Positions 2,332-29,364 of a stretch of 64,000 nucleotides of DNA are shown here, one piece after another. Origin of the DNA: Bacillota bacterium (GTDB lineage: Bacteria > Bacillota > Sulfobacillia > JBFMBV01). The first letter of the stretch is position 1, and the number at the start of each line of letters is the position of its first letter. Location: the NCBI GenBank assembly GCA_040755005.1, contig JBFMBV010000004.1, positions 8,013-72,012 of the forward strand. The letters are read 5' to 3'. Below the pieces are notes generated by a model. The model had not been told where the DNA came from. It saw nothing but the letters and a program-made list of their open reading frames with translations, and did no database searches. A program made the position numbers and the translations under genes.

Positions 2332-5001
2332 CTAACGCGGGACCTCTTCCTTGCCGACGGCCTCGAACACATCGCCTTCGCGTACGTCGCTGTATCCCGA
2401 CACGCCCATACCGCACTCGTAGCCCGCGGTGACTTCCCGTACGTCATCCTTGAACCGCTTGAGCGAGTCGACGCGTCCTTCGTGGATGACGATGTTGTCA
2501 CGCAACACGCGTACCGGGCTGTTCTTGACCATCTTGCCGTCCGTGACATAGCAGCCGGCCACGAAACCGCCCTTGGGGAGCTTGAATGCGGCCCGGACCG
2601 TGGCATGACCCACGACCACGTCACGGATGATCGGTTTCAGCATCCCAGTGATGGCTGCCTTGATATCGTCCACGGCCTCGTAGATGATGCGGTAAGTCCG
2701 GATGTCAACATGGTTCTGGTCGGAGGCCCGTTTGGCCCCGGAGTCAGGCCGGACGTTGAAGCCGATGACGATGGCGCCGGAGGCGGCAGCCAACATCACA
2801 TCGCTCTCAGTGATGGCACCGACGCCTGCGTGGATGACGTTCACCCGCACCTCGGCGTGGCTGACTTTGGCGAGGGCCTGGGCCACCGCCTCCGCCGACC
2901 CCTGGACATCCGCCTTGACCACGAGGTTGAGGTCCTTGACCTGACCCTCGCTGATGCGCTTGTGGATGTCGTCGAGGCGTAGGCGGTTGGCCACGTCGGC
3001 ATCCCTGGCGTGGGCCACCTCCGTCTGCCGGGCGGCTAGATCCCGGGCTGTCTTGTCATCGGCAGTGACCTGCAGGGAGTCACCGGCTTCGGGCACCAGC
3101 TCTAGTCCCAGCACTTCCACGGGGGTGGACGGGCCAGCATCATCGAGCCGGCGGCCCCGGTCGTCAAACAGGGCCCTCACCCGCCCGCAGGTGCTGCCGG
3201 CGACGATGGTGTCACCGACGCGGAGGGTGCCGTTCAAGATCAGGACTGTGGCCACGGGACCCCTGCCTCTGTCCAGCTGTGCCTCGACGATAGTCCCCAC
3301 GGCGACCGCGTCAGGATCGGCCCTCAGGTCCTGGAGGTCAGCGACCAAGAGGAGCATCTCCAGGAGGTCCTGCAAGCCATCGCGGGTCTTGGCGGAGACC
3401 GGCACCATGACTGTGTCGCCACCCCACTCCTCTGGGAGCAGGCCCAGATCGGCGAGTTCACGCTTGACCCGGTCGGGCTCTGACCCGGGCTTGTCGATCT
3501 TGTTGATAGCCACGACCACGGGGACTTTGGCCGCCCGCGCGTGGTTCAAGGCCTCCACGGTCTGAGGCATCACGCCGTCATCAGCCGCCACGACCAGCAC
3601 GGCGATATCCGTGACTTTGGCTCCCCGGGCCCGCATGGCCGTGAATGCCTCATGGCCGGGAGTGTCCAGGAAGATGATATCCCTGCCACGCCACTCCACC
3701 CTGGAGGCGCCGATGTGCTGCGTAATGCCGCCGGCCTCCTGGTCCGTGACTTTGGTCTCCCTGATGGCGTCCAACAGCGAGGTCTTGCCGTGGTCTACGT
3801 GGCCCATGACCGTGATGACCGGAGGGCGGGAAGCCACGCCGGCTATCTGCGCCTTGGCTGCTTCGGCCCGCTCAGGGATGGCGACGGTGGGTACTGACCC
3901 CAAGTCCTGGGCCAGCAGGGCCGCCATGTCCACGTCCAGGCCCTGGTTAACGCTGGCCATGATGCCACGCGCCATGAGCCTCTTGATGACGTCGGTGCCC
4001 CTGACGTTCAACAGGTCGGCCAGTTCCTGCACCGTGAGGTTGCCGGTAATGGTGATCTCCTTGCGTACCTCTCCGACACGCTCTACGACACCGCCCCTTG
4101 CCTGCCGTCCCCTGCGGACGACGCGCTTGAGCTCGCGCTCAGGCGGCAACGTGTCCCTGGGTACGAGGCGTCCTACCCTGCCAGGCTTGGCGGGCGCCGG
4201 CCTCGCTCCCGGAGCGGGGGCTGTGGTGGCCGCGGGCCGGGCGCCGGGTCCGGCGCCAGCGGCTGGCCGATATCCCGGGGCAGGCCGCTGGGGACTCGGA
4301 CGCGCCCCGGGGGCCCCGGGCGGGGTGGGACCGGGCCGCGCCCCAGGGCGTGGCCCCGCTCCCGCCGGGCGGGCGGCGAACGGCCGTGCGGATGCGCTCG
4401 CTCCAGGTCGGGTTGCGGCCCGCGGTGGAGGCAGGGTGCCCGGCCTGGGCGGCGCAACGCGATCAGCTCTCGCCGGGGTGGGCTGGGTCACGACAGGTTC
4501 CGGCGGGGCCTCGACCACTACGGGTGGTTCGGGTGGCGGCTGGACTGGCCGCGCTTCCAGCTCAGGCTCGACCGCCGGCTTTTGGGTGGCTGGTGCCGCC
4601 GCCTGTGCCGGCCGGGGCGCGGCCTGCGCCGGGCGGCGCTGCACCTGTTGCAACGTAGGCCTCAGCGCCCGGGGTCTCTCTGCGGCCGGCCGCTCGTCGG
4701 CCTTCTGCTTGGCCGGGCGCTGTGTCCTGGTGACTTCCACCGCGCGGGTGGCGGCGGCCCGGGTGACAACGGTGGTCCCGGTAGTAGTACGGCCCTGCTC
4801 CGTGGCAGGACGTTGACGCTCTTTGGGCGGCGTGGCCGGGGGACGCTGTAAGGTCACCCTTACGCTTTCGGCTTGCTCGGGCTCCAAAGCGCTCATATGG
4901 TTCTTTGCCTCAACGCCCAGCCTGTGCAGGCCGTCAAGGATGGCTTTGCTCGTTGTGCCCAGCTCTTTGGCCAGTTCATGGACGCGGAGTTTTGTCATCA
5001 T
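2332..5001 (-). CDS. infB: translation initiation factor IF-2
   Basis: 889-aa ORF with the IF-2 N-terminus [30 protein letters not shown], a long Pro/Ala-rich low-complexity linker, a G-domain ([30 protein letters not shown]) and a C-terminal beta-barrel. Confidence 0.95.
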
Positions 5002-23486: not shown

Positions 23487-24263
23487 TCAGCGCCGCCTCC
23501 TGAGCTCGGCCAGTAGGCGGTCGTTGAGCACTTTGATGTGGGTGCCTTTCATACCGAGGGAGCGCGACTCGATCACACCAGCGCTCTCGAACTTGCGCAA
23601 GGCGTTGACGATGACCGAACGGGTGATGCCTACCCTGTCTGCGATCTTGCTGGCTACCAGCAGCCCTTCATCGCCTTCGAGCTCTGCGAAGATGTGCCGT
23701 ACCGCCTCAAGCTCGGAGTAGGACAGGGTGCCGAGGGCCACATGAACTGCGGCTTGCTTGCGAGCCTCGTCCTCTACGCGCTCGACCTTGCCCCGCATCA
23801 TCTCCATGCCGACGACTGTAGCAGCGTATTCGCTCAGGATCAGGTCCTCGTCGGTGAAGACCTTCGAGAACCGCGCCAGGATCAATGTCCCCAGGCGATC
23901 GCCACCCCCGTTGATCGGGACGATGGTGCTGAGCTTCTCCGTGAACAGGCACTGCTCGGCAGGCTTGAACACGCACTCCCCGCGCTGCTGTCCCTGGTTA
24001 GGTAGGGTCTCCGCGGTCCGCAGCAAGCCTTGGGCGTAGTCGCGGGGGAAACGGCGGTGCTCCAGCACTTCTTCCCGCAACACGCCGCACTCAAACCCGT
24101 GCAGCAGGGCCCGACCCAGGATAGCCCCCTCGCGGTCGAGCACGTATACATTCGCGACGATCAGATCCGACAAGGCCCTGGCCATGTCTTGGAAGTCCAC
24201 GGGATGCCCGGCCGACCTTTGCAGCAGCTTGTTGATCTGGCGCGTCTTCTCCAAGAGGCTCAT
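23487..24263 (-). CDS. codY: GTP-sensing pleiotropic transcriptional repressor CodY
   Basis: 258-aa ORF with the N-terminus [15 protein letters not shown], a GAF domain and the C-terminal wHTH ([38 protein letters not shown]). Confidence 0.95.
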
Positions 24264-24279: not shown

Positions 24280-25677
24280 TCACAGGATATACCGGGACAA
24301 ATCCTGGTCGCCGGCGATCCCGGCGAGCTTATCCCGGACGTAATCCCTATCCACTGACACTAGCCCTGCCGCTGTCTCCGGCGCCCCGTAGGACACGTCC
24401 TCCAACAGCTTCTCCAGGACGGTGTGGAGGCGGCGGGCGCCGATGTCCTCAGCCTGCATGTTCACCTGCCAGGCCACATGCGCCAGCTCCCGGATCCCGT
24501 CAGGGGTGAACTCCAGATGCACACCGTCCACCGCCAGGAGCGCATGATACTGCCGCAGCAGTGCCGTGCGGGGTTCAGTCAGGATCTGGACGAAGTCCTC
24601 CTCGGAGAGGCTGGACAGCCCGACTCTGATCGGGAAGCGGCCCTGGAGTTCCGGGATCAGGTCCGACGGCCTGGAGGCGTGGAAAGCGCCTGCAGCGATG
24701 AACAGCACGTGATCCGTCCTGGCCGGCCCGTACTTGGTCATCACCGTGGAACCCTCCACGATGGGCAGGATGTCCCGCTGGACACCTTCCCTGGAGACAT
24801 CGGGGCCTGCCCCTTGCTCCCGGCCAGCGATCTTGTCGAACTCGTCGATGAAGATGATGCCGTCCTCTTCCGCCCTGCGCAGGCCCTCCCTGGCCGCCTG
24901 GTCGGCATCGACCAGCTTGTCCGCTTCCTCCTGTCCCAGCAGCCGCCTGGCCTCCGCCACTTGCACGCGCCTGACCTTCTTGCGCCGGGGGAGCAACCCG
25001 CCCAGCATGTCCTGGAAGTTGATGCCCAGCTCCTCCACGCCAGCCCCTGAGAAGACCTCCACGGTGGGAAGCTGGGTATCGTCTACCTCCAGTTGGACCG
25101 TCTCACCCTCCAGTTCGCCGGCGTCCAGCCGCTGCTCAGTACGTTGCCTGGACTCAACGGCCTCCTGCAGGCGCGCTGCGAACTCCCCAGCATCCTCTTC
25201 GCGGGCCATCGCTCCGCCGAGCAAAGCCTCCAGGGGGTTGCGGGGCCCGGTATCCCGCCTCGGCAGCGGCGCCAGCAGGTCCAGCAAGCGCTCCCGGGCT
25301 AGCCCGCCTGCCTTCCCCCTTACTTCCTCCAGGCGCTCCGCCCGGACCATGCGCACGCTCGTTTCTACGAGGTCGCGAACCATTGATTCCACATCGCGCC
25401 CGACGTAGCCGACCTCCGTGTACTTGGTCGCCTCCACCTTGATGAAGGGGGCCTGCACCAGCCTAGCCAGGCGCCGGGCGATCTCGGTCTTGCCCACCCC
25501 GGTCGGGCCGATCATGAGTATGTTCTTGGGGACGACCTCGTCCCGCAGCTCCTCGGCGAGCAGGCGCCGACGGTAACGGTTCCGTAAGGCGACCGCCACC
25601 GCCCGCTTGGCCTGCTCCTGACCGATCACATACTGGCTCAGTTCCGCCACGACTCTGGCTGGGGTGAGCTCCTTCAC
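24280..25677 (-). CDS. hslU: ATP-dependent protease ATPase subunit HslU
   Basis: 465-aa ORF with the HslU N-terminus [37 protein letters not shown] and the Walker A motif [15 protein letters not shown]. Confidence 0.95.
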
Positions 25678-25692: not shown

Positions 25693-26229
25693 CTAGACCT
25701 CTTCCACAACCACGCGGTCGTTAGTGTACAAACAGATCTCACTGGCGATCCTGATGGCCTCGGCAGCGATCTCCGCGGCACCCAACCGGGAGTGACGAGC
25801 CAGTGCCCGGGCGGCCGCGAGCGCATAGGGGCCGCCGGCCCCAATGGCGAGCACGCCGTCGTCGGGCTCGATGACCTCCCCGCTCCCGGACACCAATAGC
25901 AGCGCCGCGGCGTCGGCCGCGAGGAGCATGGCCTCCAGCCGCCTCAGGATCCGGTCGGTGCGCCAATCCCGGGCGAACAGGACCGCCGCCCGGGTCAGCT
26001 GCCCATTAGCTTGTTCGAGCTTGCTCTCGAACCGGTCGAACAGAGTCTGGGCATCGCCCACTGAGCCGGCGAAGCCGACCACCACCCGGCTCTGGTAGAT
26101 CCGCCTGACCTTACGGGCTGTGTGCTTGATGATGGTATGCGCGGCCAGGGTGACCTGGCCGTCTCCGCCGATGGCACACTGGCCGTTGAGCCGGACCCCT
26201 ACGATGGTCGTGCCTTGCAGCGTACCGAT
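25693..26229 (-). CDS. hslV: ATP-dependent protease subunit HslV (start codon unresolved)
   Basis: Frame reads ...GTLQG-TTIVGVRLNGQCAIGGDGQVTLAAHTIIKHTARKVRRIYQSRVVVGFAGSVGDAQTLFDRFE..., the HslV fold, with catalytic Thr codons at 26209-26211 and 26206-26208. There is no in-frame ATG/GTG/TTG between the upstream stop context and the Thr codons. An SD GGGAGGUG sits 8 nt before an AUC at 26227-26229. The end coordinate is provisional. Confidence 0.8.
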   Translation of the reverse strand: MGTLQGTTIVGVRLNGQCAIGGDGQVTLAAHTIIKHTARKVRRIYQSRVVVGFAGSVGDAQTLFDRFESKLEQANGQLTRAAVLFARDWRTDRILRRLEAMLLAADAAALLLVSGSGEVIEPDDGVLAIGAGGPYALAAARALARHSRLGAAEIAAEAIRIASEICLYTNDRVVVEEV

Positions 26230-26249
26230 GCCTGGCGCACCTCCCGCAT

Positions 26250-27140
26250 TCAGGCCCTGGGATGAGCCCTCCTGTATACGGCCCGCATGCGTTCCTGGGT
26301 CACATGGGCGTAGATCTGCGTGGTCGAGATGCTCACATGCCCGAGCAGTTCCTGCACGGATCTCAGGTCAGCCCCCGCATCCAGCAGATGGGTGGCGAAA
26401 GAGTGCCTGAGGGTGTGCGGGCTGACCTTCCTGGACCGCGCGGTCTGATCCAGGTACTTGTCGAGGATGCGCCGCACGCTCCTGTCCCGCAGCCGTGTGC
26501 CCCTGCTGTTGACGAACAGCGCCCGCTCGGGCCTCCCGGCCACCATGGAGGGCCGGGCCTCCCGCAAGTACCGGGCTAGGGCCCTGAGGGCGTAGCTCCC
26601 GACGGGCACCAGCCGCTCCTTCCGCCCCTTCCCGTAGGCGATGAGGAACCCCTCGTCGAGGGACACTGACCCTAAGTCCAGGCCTACCAGCTCGCCGACG
26701 CGGAGGCCGGCTGCATACAGCGTCTCCAGAAGGGCCGCGTCCCGCAGTCCGAGGGGGTGGCTGGGGTCGGGGGCGTCCAGCAGCGCTGCCACCTCTTCCA
26801 CATGGAGGAAGCCGGGCAAGCGGCGCCCCAGTTTGGGACCGGACACACTGGCCAGGGGATGCTCCGGCAGCCCGCCCTCCCGGCAGACAAACCGAAAGAA
26901 TGAGCGCAGGGTGGCCAGCTTCCGTGCCATGCTCCGCCGGGCGTAGCTTCGGGCTACCAGGTGGCCGAGGAAGCGGCGGGCAGTGAGGTGATCCACCCCG
27001 GCCAGATCCCTTCCGAGGCCTTCCCTGGCGCAAAAGCCAAAGAACTGCGACAGGTCACCGGCGTAGCTCCGCAGCGTGTGCTCGGAGGCGCCCTTTTCGA
27101 CCCTCAAGTAGTCTAGGAACGGCCCCAGCCAGTCTGACAC
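26250..27140 (-). CDS. xerC: tyrosine recombinase XerC (CodV-like)
   Basis: [23 protein letters not shown]... followed by the catalytic R..HxxR..Y block ([36 protein letters not shown]). The ORF-track start at 27446 overlaps topA by 170 nt. A GTG at 27138-27140 with GGAGG 6 nt upstream gives 296 aa. Confidence 0.85.
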
Positions 27141-27162
27141 AGCCAACCTCCGATCCAGACAC

Positions 27163-27191
27163 ATTGTACCACTGCCCGACTGCGGCTTCAA
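27163..27191 (-). promoter_or_regulatory. candidate sigma-A promoter for xerC-hslVU-codY
   Basis: Minus strand: TTGAAG (27186-27191), 17-nt spacer, extended -10 TGGTACAAT (-10 at 27163-27168). Lies in the 112-nt gap after topA. Confidence 0.4.
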
Positions 27192-27276
27192 TTCACAATT
27201 CTCAGAACATCGCGGCATCAGCGTCTCCGGGGGCGGCGTGAGCGCAGGCAAGCCCAGCTCCCGATGCCGACTGGGT

Positions 27277-29364
27277 TCAACCCGCCTCGGTCTCCATGCG
27301 GTGGCCGCACTCCTCCTTGGCGCAGACCAACACAGGACTCTGACCGCGGCGACGTTGTTCGAACATGACGGTTCCGCAGGCCGGGCACTCTCCGGCCGGC
27401 ACCTTCCACGACACGTAGTCGCACTCCGGGTATCGCACGCACCCATAGAACCTGCGTTTCTGTTTGGTCCGGCGCGCGGCCAGCTCCCCGCCGCAACGTG
27501 GGCAGCGTCCCGGGACGGTCTCGATCAGGGGTTTGGTGCTGCGGCACTCAGGGAAGCCTGGGCAGGCCAGGAACTTCCCGTAGCGTCCCCATTTCACCAC
27601 CATGTTCTGGCCGCACTTCTCACAGAGCACATCGCTGACTTCCTCGGCCACGGTGAGGGGACCGATGGCTTCCTCCGCCTTGGTCAGGGTGGCAACGAAC
27701 GGCGGGTAGAACTCACCCAGCACGTCGTGCCACCCCCGCGAACCTTCTTCGACCTCGTCCAGCCTGCGTTCCAGTTCTGCCGTGAACTCCACGTCCACTA
27801 CGTCCGCGAAATGCTCCGTGAGCAGGTCCGTCACCAGCGTGCCCAGCTCGGTGGGGACCAGGCGCCGCTGGGACTTGGAGGCATACCCGCGGGTGACGAT
27901 GGTGTCGATGGTCGGAGCGTATGTACTCGGACGTCCGATGCCCTGCTCTTCCAGGGCCCTGACCAGGGTCGCCTCGGTGTACCGGGGCGGGGCTTGGGTG
28001 AAGTGCTGCTTCGGCATGAGTTCTGCCAGGCGCACGGGCTCCCCCGGCACGAGCTCCGGCAGGTTGCCTTCGTCCTTGTCGGCGTCGGGTTCATCCTCAC
28101 CCACGGTGTACAGGGCAGTGAACCCAGCGAAACGTAACGTGGACCCGGAGGCCCGGAACAGGTGGCGGCCTGCGGCGATCTCCGCCGTGACCACATCGAA
28201 CAGGGCAGCCGCCATTTCGCTGGCCACGAAGCGCTCCCAGATGAGCCTGTACAGGCGGTACTGCTCTGAACTCAAGTACGGCTTCAGCGTTTCAGGTTCC
28301 CGCGACACTGCCGTGGGACGGATGGCCTCATGGGCCTCCTGAGCGCCCTTGGCCTTCACCGCCTCCCGGGGGCGCGCCGGCACGAACTTGGCCCCGAACC
28401 GGCCCTTGATGTACTTGCGCACCTCTTCCCTGGCTGGCGCCGCGATGCGGGTGGAGTCGGTGCGCATGTACGTGATGAGGCCGACAGCGCCGCCACCACC
28501 TACCTCAAGGCCTTCGTACAGCTGCTGGGCAATGGCCATGGTCCGTCGGACCGGGAACCCCAGCTTCCGAAAGGCTTCCTGCTGCATGGTCGAGGTGATG
28601 AACGCCGGTTCGGCTAAGCGGCGCCGCTCCTTAGACTTAACACTGACGACACTGAACGCGGCCCGCGCGATGGCGGCCTGCACTCTGTCCACGTCGGCGC
28701 CGGTCTTCAGCTCGACCTTGCGTCCAGCCTCGCCCCAATACTTGGCCGTGAACACCACCTCGTCGGAGCACCTGGCCAGCCGGGCTGTGAGCGACCAGTA
28801 CTCCTCAGGCACAAAGGCGTGGATCTGCCGTTCCCTGTCCACGATCAGCTTGAGGGCTACCGACTGCACCCGCCCGGCGCTCAAGCCCGGCCGCACCTTG
28901 CGCCACAGCAAGGGGCTCAGTTTGTACCCCACCACGCGGTCCAGGACCCTGCGGGCCTGCTGGGCGTCGACCAGGTTCATGTTGATGGGGCGGGGATGCT
29001 TCAGGGCCCCCTCGACCGCCTCTTTGGTGATCTCATGGAACTCGATGCGTACGGCGTTGGCGGGCAGGTTCAGGATGTCAGCCAGGTGCCAGGAGATCGC
29101 CTCTCCTTCCCGGTCAGGGTCTGTCGCCAGATACACCTTGCCCGCCTTCTTGGCGCTGTCCCTGAGCTGCTTGACGATGTCCCCTTTGCCCCTGATCGTG
29201 ATGTATTTCGGGGTGAATCCGTGCTCCACGTCGACCCCGAACTGGCTGCGGGGCAAGTCCCGGATATGGCCCATCGAAGCCTTGACCTGGCAACGCCGTC
29301 CCAGCAGGCGTTCCAGGGTCCTGGCCTTGGCGGGGGATTCCACGATGATCAGCGGTTTCGGCAC
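27277..29364 (-). CDS. topA: DNA topoisomerase I
   Basis: 695-aa ORF with the N-terminus [22 protein letters not shown], a Toprim domain, the catalytic core and C-terminal Zn-ribbon repeats (CPxCG). Confidence 0.95.

Follow-up and report, generated by a model that had tools for sequence, protein, structure and literature searches.

We analysed a 64,000-nucleotide (nt) stretch of contig JBFMBV010000004.1 (positions 8,013 to 72,012 of the forward strand; assembly GCA_040755005.1), hereafter the window, from an uncultured, high-GC (67%) metagenome-assembled genome (MAG) of the Bacillota, and found that hslV (clpQ/codW), which encodes a protease with its active site at the N-terminus, lacks all three canonical start codons (ATG, GTG and TTG). 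With moderate confidence, we read this locus as an intact, expressed gene in which translation would begin at an AUC codon behind a strong Shine-Dalgarno (SD) sequence, the resulting short leader then being removed to expose the catalytic Thr1. The coding sequence proposed here spans 25693..26229 (ATC start, 178 codons, TAG stop at 25695-25693). All features described below lie on the minus strand, and the coordinates are those of the window.

The hslV frame lacks a canonical start codon

As the first-pass annotation of the window had noted, no ATG, GTG or TTG precedes the catalytic Thr codons in the HslV frame, which remains open for 53 codons before Thr1, up to a TGA at 26370-26368. A canonical in-frame start appears only 42 codons past Thr1, as a GTG (26085-26083), so that canonical starts are absent from the frame over 94 codons. 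Near the junction with the upstream gene xerC (codV), the frame reads ...G-I-G-T-L-Q-G-T-T-I-V-G-V-R..., with Thr1 encoded by ACG (26211-26209) and Thr2 by ACC (26208-26206). These positions, as well as those of the xerC stop codon (TGA, 26252-26250; XerC equivalog TIGR02224) and of the SD sequence GGGAGGTG (26245-26238), agree with the earlier description. Between the SD and position 26179, no canonical triplet was found in any of the frames, except for the GTG within the SD itself.

A start-free run of 53 codons is expected with P ~0.12 from base composition alone, and thus its length is statistically unremarkable. The unusual part is the setting, since the run lies at the 5' end of a gene that is conserved and under selection. 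Among the 56 coding-like frames in the window, only hslV has such a long start-free 5' part, which speaks against a general laxity about starts in this organism. A genome-wide permissiveness for odd starts, which we also considered, was dropped, since hslV stands alone among the coding-like frames of the window in this respect.

The junction is identical in length across three haplotypes

A sequencing or assembly indel could hide a normal ATG or GTG start, given that single-base indels commonly make MAG genes look startless and that an out-of-frame ATG lies nearby. We therefore turn to a sister strain, ~98% identical to the window, which is represented by four Logan contigs (L081-L084) assembled independently from four sequencing runs; three of these contigs share one haplotype and L084 carries another, making three haplotypes with that of the window. 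Across the five assemblies, the junction and the whole hslV gene align with 0 gaps, the differences being ~2% substitutions, and the SD, the ATC, ACG and CTG codons upstream of Thr1, and the Thr-Thr pair keep the same spacing. An extra or missing base before ACGACC in close relatives, which had been proposed as the mark of a plain assembly error, was looked for in the four sister-strain assemblies, and none was seen. Five assemblies with a junction of equal length exclude a 1-nt error at the assembly level, and the nearby ATG is AGG in the four Logan contigs; hence, within the reach of assembly data, the indel put forward in the first-pass annotation is refuted, and we give it next to no credence.

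In L084, we identified a G-to-A change at 26231, within the spacer between the SD and ATC, a synonymous change of the Thr1 codon from ACG to ACC, and a Val6-to-Ile replacement. These substitutions, combined with the constant spacing, suggest that the junction tolerates substitutions but not length changes. The Thr1 codon was itself examined as an initiator and rejected: its replacement by ACC in L084 argues against such a role, it is located 28 nt from the GGAGG core of the SD, and initiation there would shift the invariant Thr-Thr register.

hslV is maintained by purifying selection

For comparison, we collected 160 hslV loci, 80 from genomes and 80 from metagenomes. The window protein matches the HslV profiles NF003964 (254.8 bits, cutoff 137; NCBIfam equivalog) and TIGR03692 (249.3 bits, cutoff 157.75), with position 1 of the latter profile falling on Thr1. 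Thr1, Thr2, Asp17, Lys33 and the Gly-rich oxyanion region (Gly45-48) are intact, and the Thr-Thr pair, Asp17 and Lys33 are invariant in 80/80 relatives. The partner ATPase HslU is complete and retains the HslV-activating C-terminal tail.

A gene that lost its start codon could be decaying, with the protease inactive or dispensable and little or no protein produced. Comparison of the window with the sister strain gives 9 synonymous and 2 non-synonymous differences for hslV, that is, a ratio of non-synonymous to synonymous polymorphism (pN/pS) of 0.08 (P = 2e-4 against neutrality), equal to that of hslU (0.08) and comparable to the values for topA (0.11) and codY (0.02). Purifying selection of the same strength as on hslU, together with the intact residues, points to a maintained gene rather than a pseudogene; furthermore, there is no frameshift or stop in hslV, the strong SD is conserved, and hslU is intact including its activating tail. 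What speaks for decay is the low output expected of a near-cognate start and the state of the active site, where an otherwise invariant serine is replaced and three further near-invariant positions are changed (see below). On this evidence, decay appears very unlikely, and we regard hslV, as judged from its sequence, as a real, functional gene under purifying selection.

The replaced serine is that of the G-S-G-G motif (Ser124 in E. coli HslV, Ser133 in Staphylococcus aureus HslV, Ser129 in the proteasome), which reads G-A-G-G in both strains, with Ala encoded by GCC (25837..25839) in the window; all 160 relatives have Ser at this position. The three other near-invariant positions that differ in the comparison with 80 relatives are A52G, N71Q and E78L, numbered from Thr1 (codons 26056-26058, 25999-26001 and 25978-25980). 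The S124A variant of E. coli HslV reportedly has lower peptidase activity. In the proteasome, Ser129 is part of the proton relay that serves the Thr1 amine (PMC4792962). Apart from that for Ser124, all sequence tests identify the window protein as HslV.

ATC as the best-supported candidate start

Between the SD and Thr1, the HslV frame contains three near-cognate codons: ATC (26229-26227), ACG (26223-26221) and CTG (26220-26218), respectively, 6, 4 and 3 codons before Thr1. The SD (GGGAGGUG, 26238..26245, GGAGG core at 26244-26240) is the same in all five assemblies, and its predicted pairing with the anti-SD, for which the canonical sequence was taken, comprises about seven Watson-Crick pairs and one G.U pair (-14.2 kcal/mol), among the stronger in the window. 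After the GGAGG core, the distance is 10 nt to ATC, 16 nt to ACG and 19 nt to CTG; counted from the full SD, ATC follows after 8 nt and CTG after 17 nt, as reported previously. Among the relatives, 46 have an exact GGAGG; their spacer measures 6-8 nt in 34 cases and never exceeds 13 nt, and likely true starts in this genome lie 5-11 nt after GGAGG (topA 6, hslU 11). ATC is also the sole triplet of the AUH (AUA, AUC, AUU) or CUG class at a workable distance from the SD in any frame. The locus combines the absence of a canonical start with a near-cognate codon at functional SD spacing, as do AUH-start genes such as infC, pcnB and ccpN.

The leader that would result from initiation at ATC, M-G-T-L-Q-G-TT, aligns column by column with the MGxFHA-TT leaders of Bacilli, MGNFHA-TT (PDB 3ty6) and MGTFHA-TT (locus L059), so that ATC falls on their Met. 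The G-to-A change at 26231 in L084 bears on the choice as well: it is non-synonymous in the hslV-frame codon directly 5' of ATC, and it destroys the sole AGG (26233-31) that lies nearer to ACG and CTG. Given the spacing, the lack of any other suitable triplet, the alignment of the leader and the L084 change, as well as its conservation in the five assemblies, we infer that ATC is the most likely start.

Initiation at the CUG would yield a product of 175 amino acids (aa) beginning with formylmethionine (fMet)-Gln-Gly-Thr-Thr, with a 3-residue leader. This is exactly the protein in the NCBI record MEW6307756.1 (175 aa, MQGTT...), retrieved by exact-sequence look-up. The CTG is kept in all five assemblies and coincides in position with a Met codon in other loci (MEA-TT in L005, MHA-TT in L024), suggesting that 3-residue leaders may occur; in E. 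coli, CUG initiates at 1-2% of AUG, as does AUC (10.1101/063800). However, its distance from the SD exceeds both the maximum among the 46 relatives and the range in this genome, the only purine-rich element closer to it is lost in L084, and ribosomes on the SD would engage the better-placed AUC first. We therefore consider a CUG start unlikely, although a candidate to be taken seriously.

The ACG could be a relic of the ancestral ATG of an M-L-Q-G-TT leader, altered by a T-to-C transition. It aligns with the Met of MLQATT (protein P0008) and of the common MFHA-TT leaders, and initiation at ACG is detectable in E. coli, although this codon falls in the 0.1-1% class there, below AUC and CUG (10.1101/063800). 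Since it also lies beyond the observed range of spacers, ACG appears to be a highly improbable initiator.

Several observations weigh against initiation at ATC. Its 10-nt spacer falls near the upper limit of what is usual; the SD pairing assumes a canonical anti-SD at the 16S rRNA 3' end of this organism; and the SD (AGGTGC) does not fit the 'extended SD' motif of S. aureus (AGGNGT, AGGNAT, GGGNGT or GGGNAT). In E. coli, AUC is intrinsically about as strong as CUG (10.1101/063800), and the NCBI pipeline picked CTG, not ATC. Furthermore, the conservation of ATC is shown for three haplotypes of one species, the next HslU being 68% identical. Finally, with the leader presumably removed, the protein sequence cannot discriminate among the candidate starts, and several codons may serve.

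In E. coli, AUC, AUA, AUU and CUG initiate at 1-2% of the level of AUG and yield an N-terminal Met (10.1101/063800). In the Firmicute S. aureus, mapped AUA and AUU starts with strong SDs give, in vivo, ~10-30% of what AUG does (PMC13009471).

A removable leader would make the exact start immaterial

In the mechanism that we propose, the long SD GGGAGGUG just past the xerC stop would recruit ribosomes, some of which may be handed over from termination at that stop, 20 nt upstream of ATC. In E. coli reporters, a start located 20 nt past an upstream stop receives ~40% of its initiations by reinitiation (PMC3592434), and by analogy, coupling to xerC may help hslV initiation. The initiator tRNA would then be set on the near-cognate AUC, similarly to the AUU and AUA starts of infC, pcnB and S. 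aureus ccpN. The primary product would be a 178-aa protein starting with fMet-Gly-Thr-Leu-Gln-Gly-Thr-Thr, with the predicted N-terminal peptide (M)GTLQGTTIVGVR.

The predicted 6-residue leader, (M)GTLQG (26212..26229), would be removed, probably by HslU- and ATP-dependent self-cleavage as in S. aureus HslV (PMC7468587), exposing Thr1. Leaders of Firmicute HslV proteins normally comprise 3-7 residues, and the L-Q-G end of the window leader fits the pattern seen in relatives, a hydrophobic residue followed by H/Q/R/K and then by G/A/S (FHA, MHG, LKG, IRG, LQA). Because the leader is discarded, any in-frame start would yield the same mature enzyme, which is probably why the loss of a canonical start is tolerable. 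The weak codon should also reduce the HslV output compared with AUG and confer sensitivity to initiation factor 3 (IF3); both the cleavage and this effect on expression we infer by analogy. Of the explanations listed in the first-pass annotation, non-canonical initiation followed by removal of a short leader is the one that our results support, considering that the gene is under selection, that a strong SD lies near the AUC, and that such leaders are normal in Firmicutes.

Alternatively, ribosomes could reach the hslV frame out of xerC or an upstream open reading frame (uORF), through coupling or -1 frameshifting, and the fusion would be processed at Gly|Thr. Within the xerC 3' end, 39 codons of the hslV frame are free of stops, in the -1 frame relative to xerC, and self-processing N-terminal nucleophile hydrolases could, in principle, free Thr1 from any precursor. 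An out-of-frame ATG (26249-26247) directly after the xerC stop (TGAATG) indeed opens a 16-codon uORF in the window, as described earlier; its TAG (26201-26199), however, overlaps the Val-Gly codons and merely touches the Ile codon, rather than overlapping Ile-Val. This ATG is polymorphic, being replaced by AGG in four of the five assemblies, and lies outside the proposed mechanism. Moreover, the junction contains no X-XXY-YYZ slippery site or homopolymer, its predicted RNA fold is no better than that of shuffled sequences (z = -0.32), and a conserved strong SD near an in-frame near-cognate codon would be needless. Given the unconserved uORF ATG and the lack of a slippery site and of structure, we reject uORF coupling or frameshifting, and entry from any other frame is scarcely credible.

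Returning to initiation at AUC, a more elaborate possibility is that the weak start is a maintained throttle, which keeps HslV deliberately low, IF3-sensitive and partly dependent on xerC, and is linked with the remodelling of the active site (Ser124 to Ala and the three other changes) as one adaptation to a slow or differently activated HslV. We consider this scenario speculative and rather improbable. If the weak start and the Ser124-to-Ala replacement were truly linked, the locus would constitute a natural experiment on the proton-relay serine of HslV and the proteasome.

Canonical starts prevail in other hslV loci

In every one of the 160 loci of the comparison set, a canonical in-frame start is present within 14 codons of Thr1, with a single doubtful case (L011), and the usual start is an ATG 3-7 codons upstream of Thr1. 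The next relatives (65-69% identical) start hslV with ATG, GTG or TTG. Intermediate-distance relatives were not found in the HslV and HslU protein searches, where identity drops from 99-100% to 68-69%, nor in the genome scan (best 65%) or the metagenome protein scan (best 66%); a search of metagenome contigs with a degenerate pattern of the junction gave 0 matches.

Recurrence of AUH starts in Firmicute hslV was considered and dropped, as the apparent exceptions, L011 aside, were resolved on reading the DNA. In L014, the start is a GTG overlapping the xerC stop (GGTGA); L052, L114 and L116 have upstream ATGs; and in P0090, an ATGA overlap gives a 34-residue leader.

Two of these loci deserve separate mention. 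L011 (positions 2966-3006; Sporomusaceae MAG, JAPUES010000178.1) is a possible, ambiguous second case of an AUH-start hslV. Its sequence is AGGAGGTGGTATTT-ATA-TTC-CAT-GCT-Thr-Thr, as opposed to GGAGGTGATATC-ATG-TTT-CAT-GCT in its relatives L007 and L008, and a canonical start exists in frame only as a GTG within the SD, with an SD-like AAGGTG 8 nt upstream. In the high-GC locus L085 (positions 1536-1640; MAG contig JBAIGK010001755.1), which encodes P0090, the sole canonical hslV start is the ATG overlapping the xerC stop. The 34-residue leader of P0090 is Gly/Pro-rich, and ACC is found where relatives have the Met of MHA-TT; hence, either P0090 carries a long propeptide, or its true start is a further, concealed non-canonical codon.

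Consequences for annotation

Prodigal-type gene callers begin hslV at the GTG at 26085-26083 and thereby drop the first 48 codons, including Thr1, Asp17 and Lys33, leaving a 130-aa product. A protein search identified this truncated product (P0001) on all four Logan contigs. Because the 130-aa product still matches the Pfam Proteasome family, the truncation is easily missed in large protein catalogues. With MEW6307756.1 starting at CTG, a non-canonical start of hslV is already on record; the NCBI pipeline thus rescues the gene, although probably with the wrong codon.

The xerC-hslV-hslU-codY locus

The gene order on the minus strand, topA, xerC, hslV, hslU and codY, is typical of Firmicutes, and the run xerC-hslV-hslU-codY, on one strand with short gaps, corresponds to a codVWXY-type operon. 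hslU (clpY/codX) occupies 24280..25677 (TIGR00390, 611.6 bits), and its C-terminal tail reads ...DLSRYIL; codY, the last gene of the cluster, spans 23487..24263 (NF003170, 376.9 bits).

Within this locus, xerC (26250-27446) differs from its neighbours. The two strains show 7 synonymous and 11 non-synonymous differences in this gene, with a pN/pS of 0.58 that is indistinguishable from neutral, compared with 0.02-0.11 for the neighbouring genes. The xerC start is ambiguous: the longest open reading frame (398 aa) overlaps topA, the length predicted by gene callers is 333 aa, and the match to the XerC profile covers this 333-aa call only from residue 45 onwards. Regarding starts in general, GTG is used very frequently in this genome (for example, by the genes at 29364, 25677, 34169 and 23305), and the 5-11 nt spacers after GGAGG of the window genes exceed, on average, the E. 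coli optimum.

Comparison with known systems

The window protein shares with E. coli HslV (Met-Thr-Thr...) the family, the fold-defining residues and the partner ATPase. In E. coli, however, removal of the initiator Met exposes Thr1, whereas in the window at least three residues precede Thr1 with any of the candidate starts.

A closer parallel is S. aureus HslV (ClpQ), in which the N-terminal extension is cleaved in an HslU- and ATP-dependent manner, exposing the catalytic Thr (Jeong et al. 2020, PMC7468587). Both are Firmicute hslV genes adjoining hslU, with a short leader before Thr-Thr that must be removed for Thr to act as the nucleophile, and Asp17, Lys33 and the equivalent of Thr9 of the S. 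aureus protein are conserved in the window protein. Unlike the window gene, S. aureus hslV is not reported to be without a canonical start; its leader has 8 residues, compared with 6 (or 3-4) in the window, where cleavage is predicted; and it retains Ser133, in place of which the window protein has Ala. A cleavable leader of the Gram-positive HslV type would make the mature enzyme independent of the exact start position.

The gene order is the same as that of codV-codW-codX-codY in Bacillus subtilis, and the leader of CodW (ClpQ) is of similar length, MSSFHA-TT compared with (M)GTLQG-TT. In CodW, the N-terminal Ser of the leader is reported as the nucleophile, according to the summary in PMC7468587. 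The window leader contains no Ser, and hence this mechanism cannot apply to it. CodW, too, differs in that it is not reported to be without a canonical start.

With regard to initiation, the relevant precedents are the AUH-start genes, namely, E. coli infC and pcnB (AUU) and S. aureus infC, ccpN and citZ (AUA) and cvfC1 (AUU) (PMC13009471; PMC3592434). In those genes, the codon is AUU or AUA rather than AUC, and the S. aureus examples follow the operational 'extended' motif, outside of which the window SD falls. The window start is predicted from sequence, and its conservation within one species, not across genera, means that membership in the conserved class of non-canonical starts cannot be claimed. 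What the window hslV has in common with these genes is a near-cognate codon at normal spacing behind a long SD, without a competing canonical start, and initiation that is expected to be reduced and IF3-sensitive. The feature is real and its proposed mechanism ordinary, a rare exception of a known kind in an unusual gene; as a protease gene whose product has its active site at the N-terminus, hslV would join the few bacterial genes with AUH-class starts.

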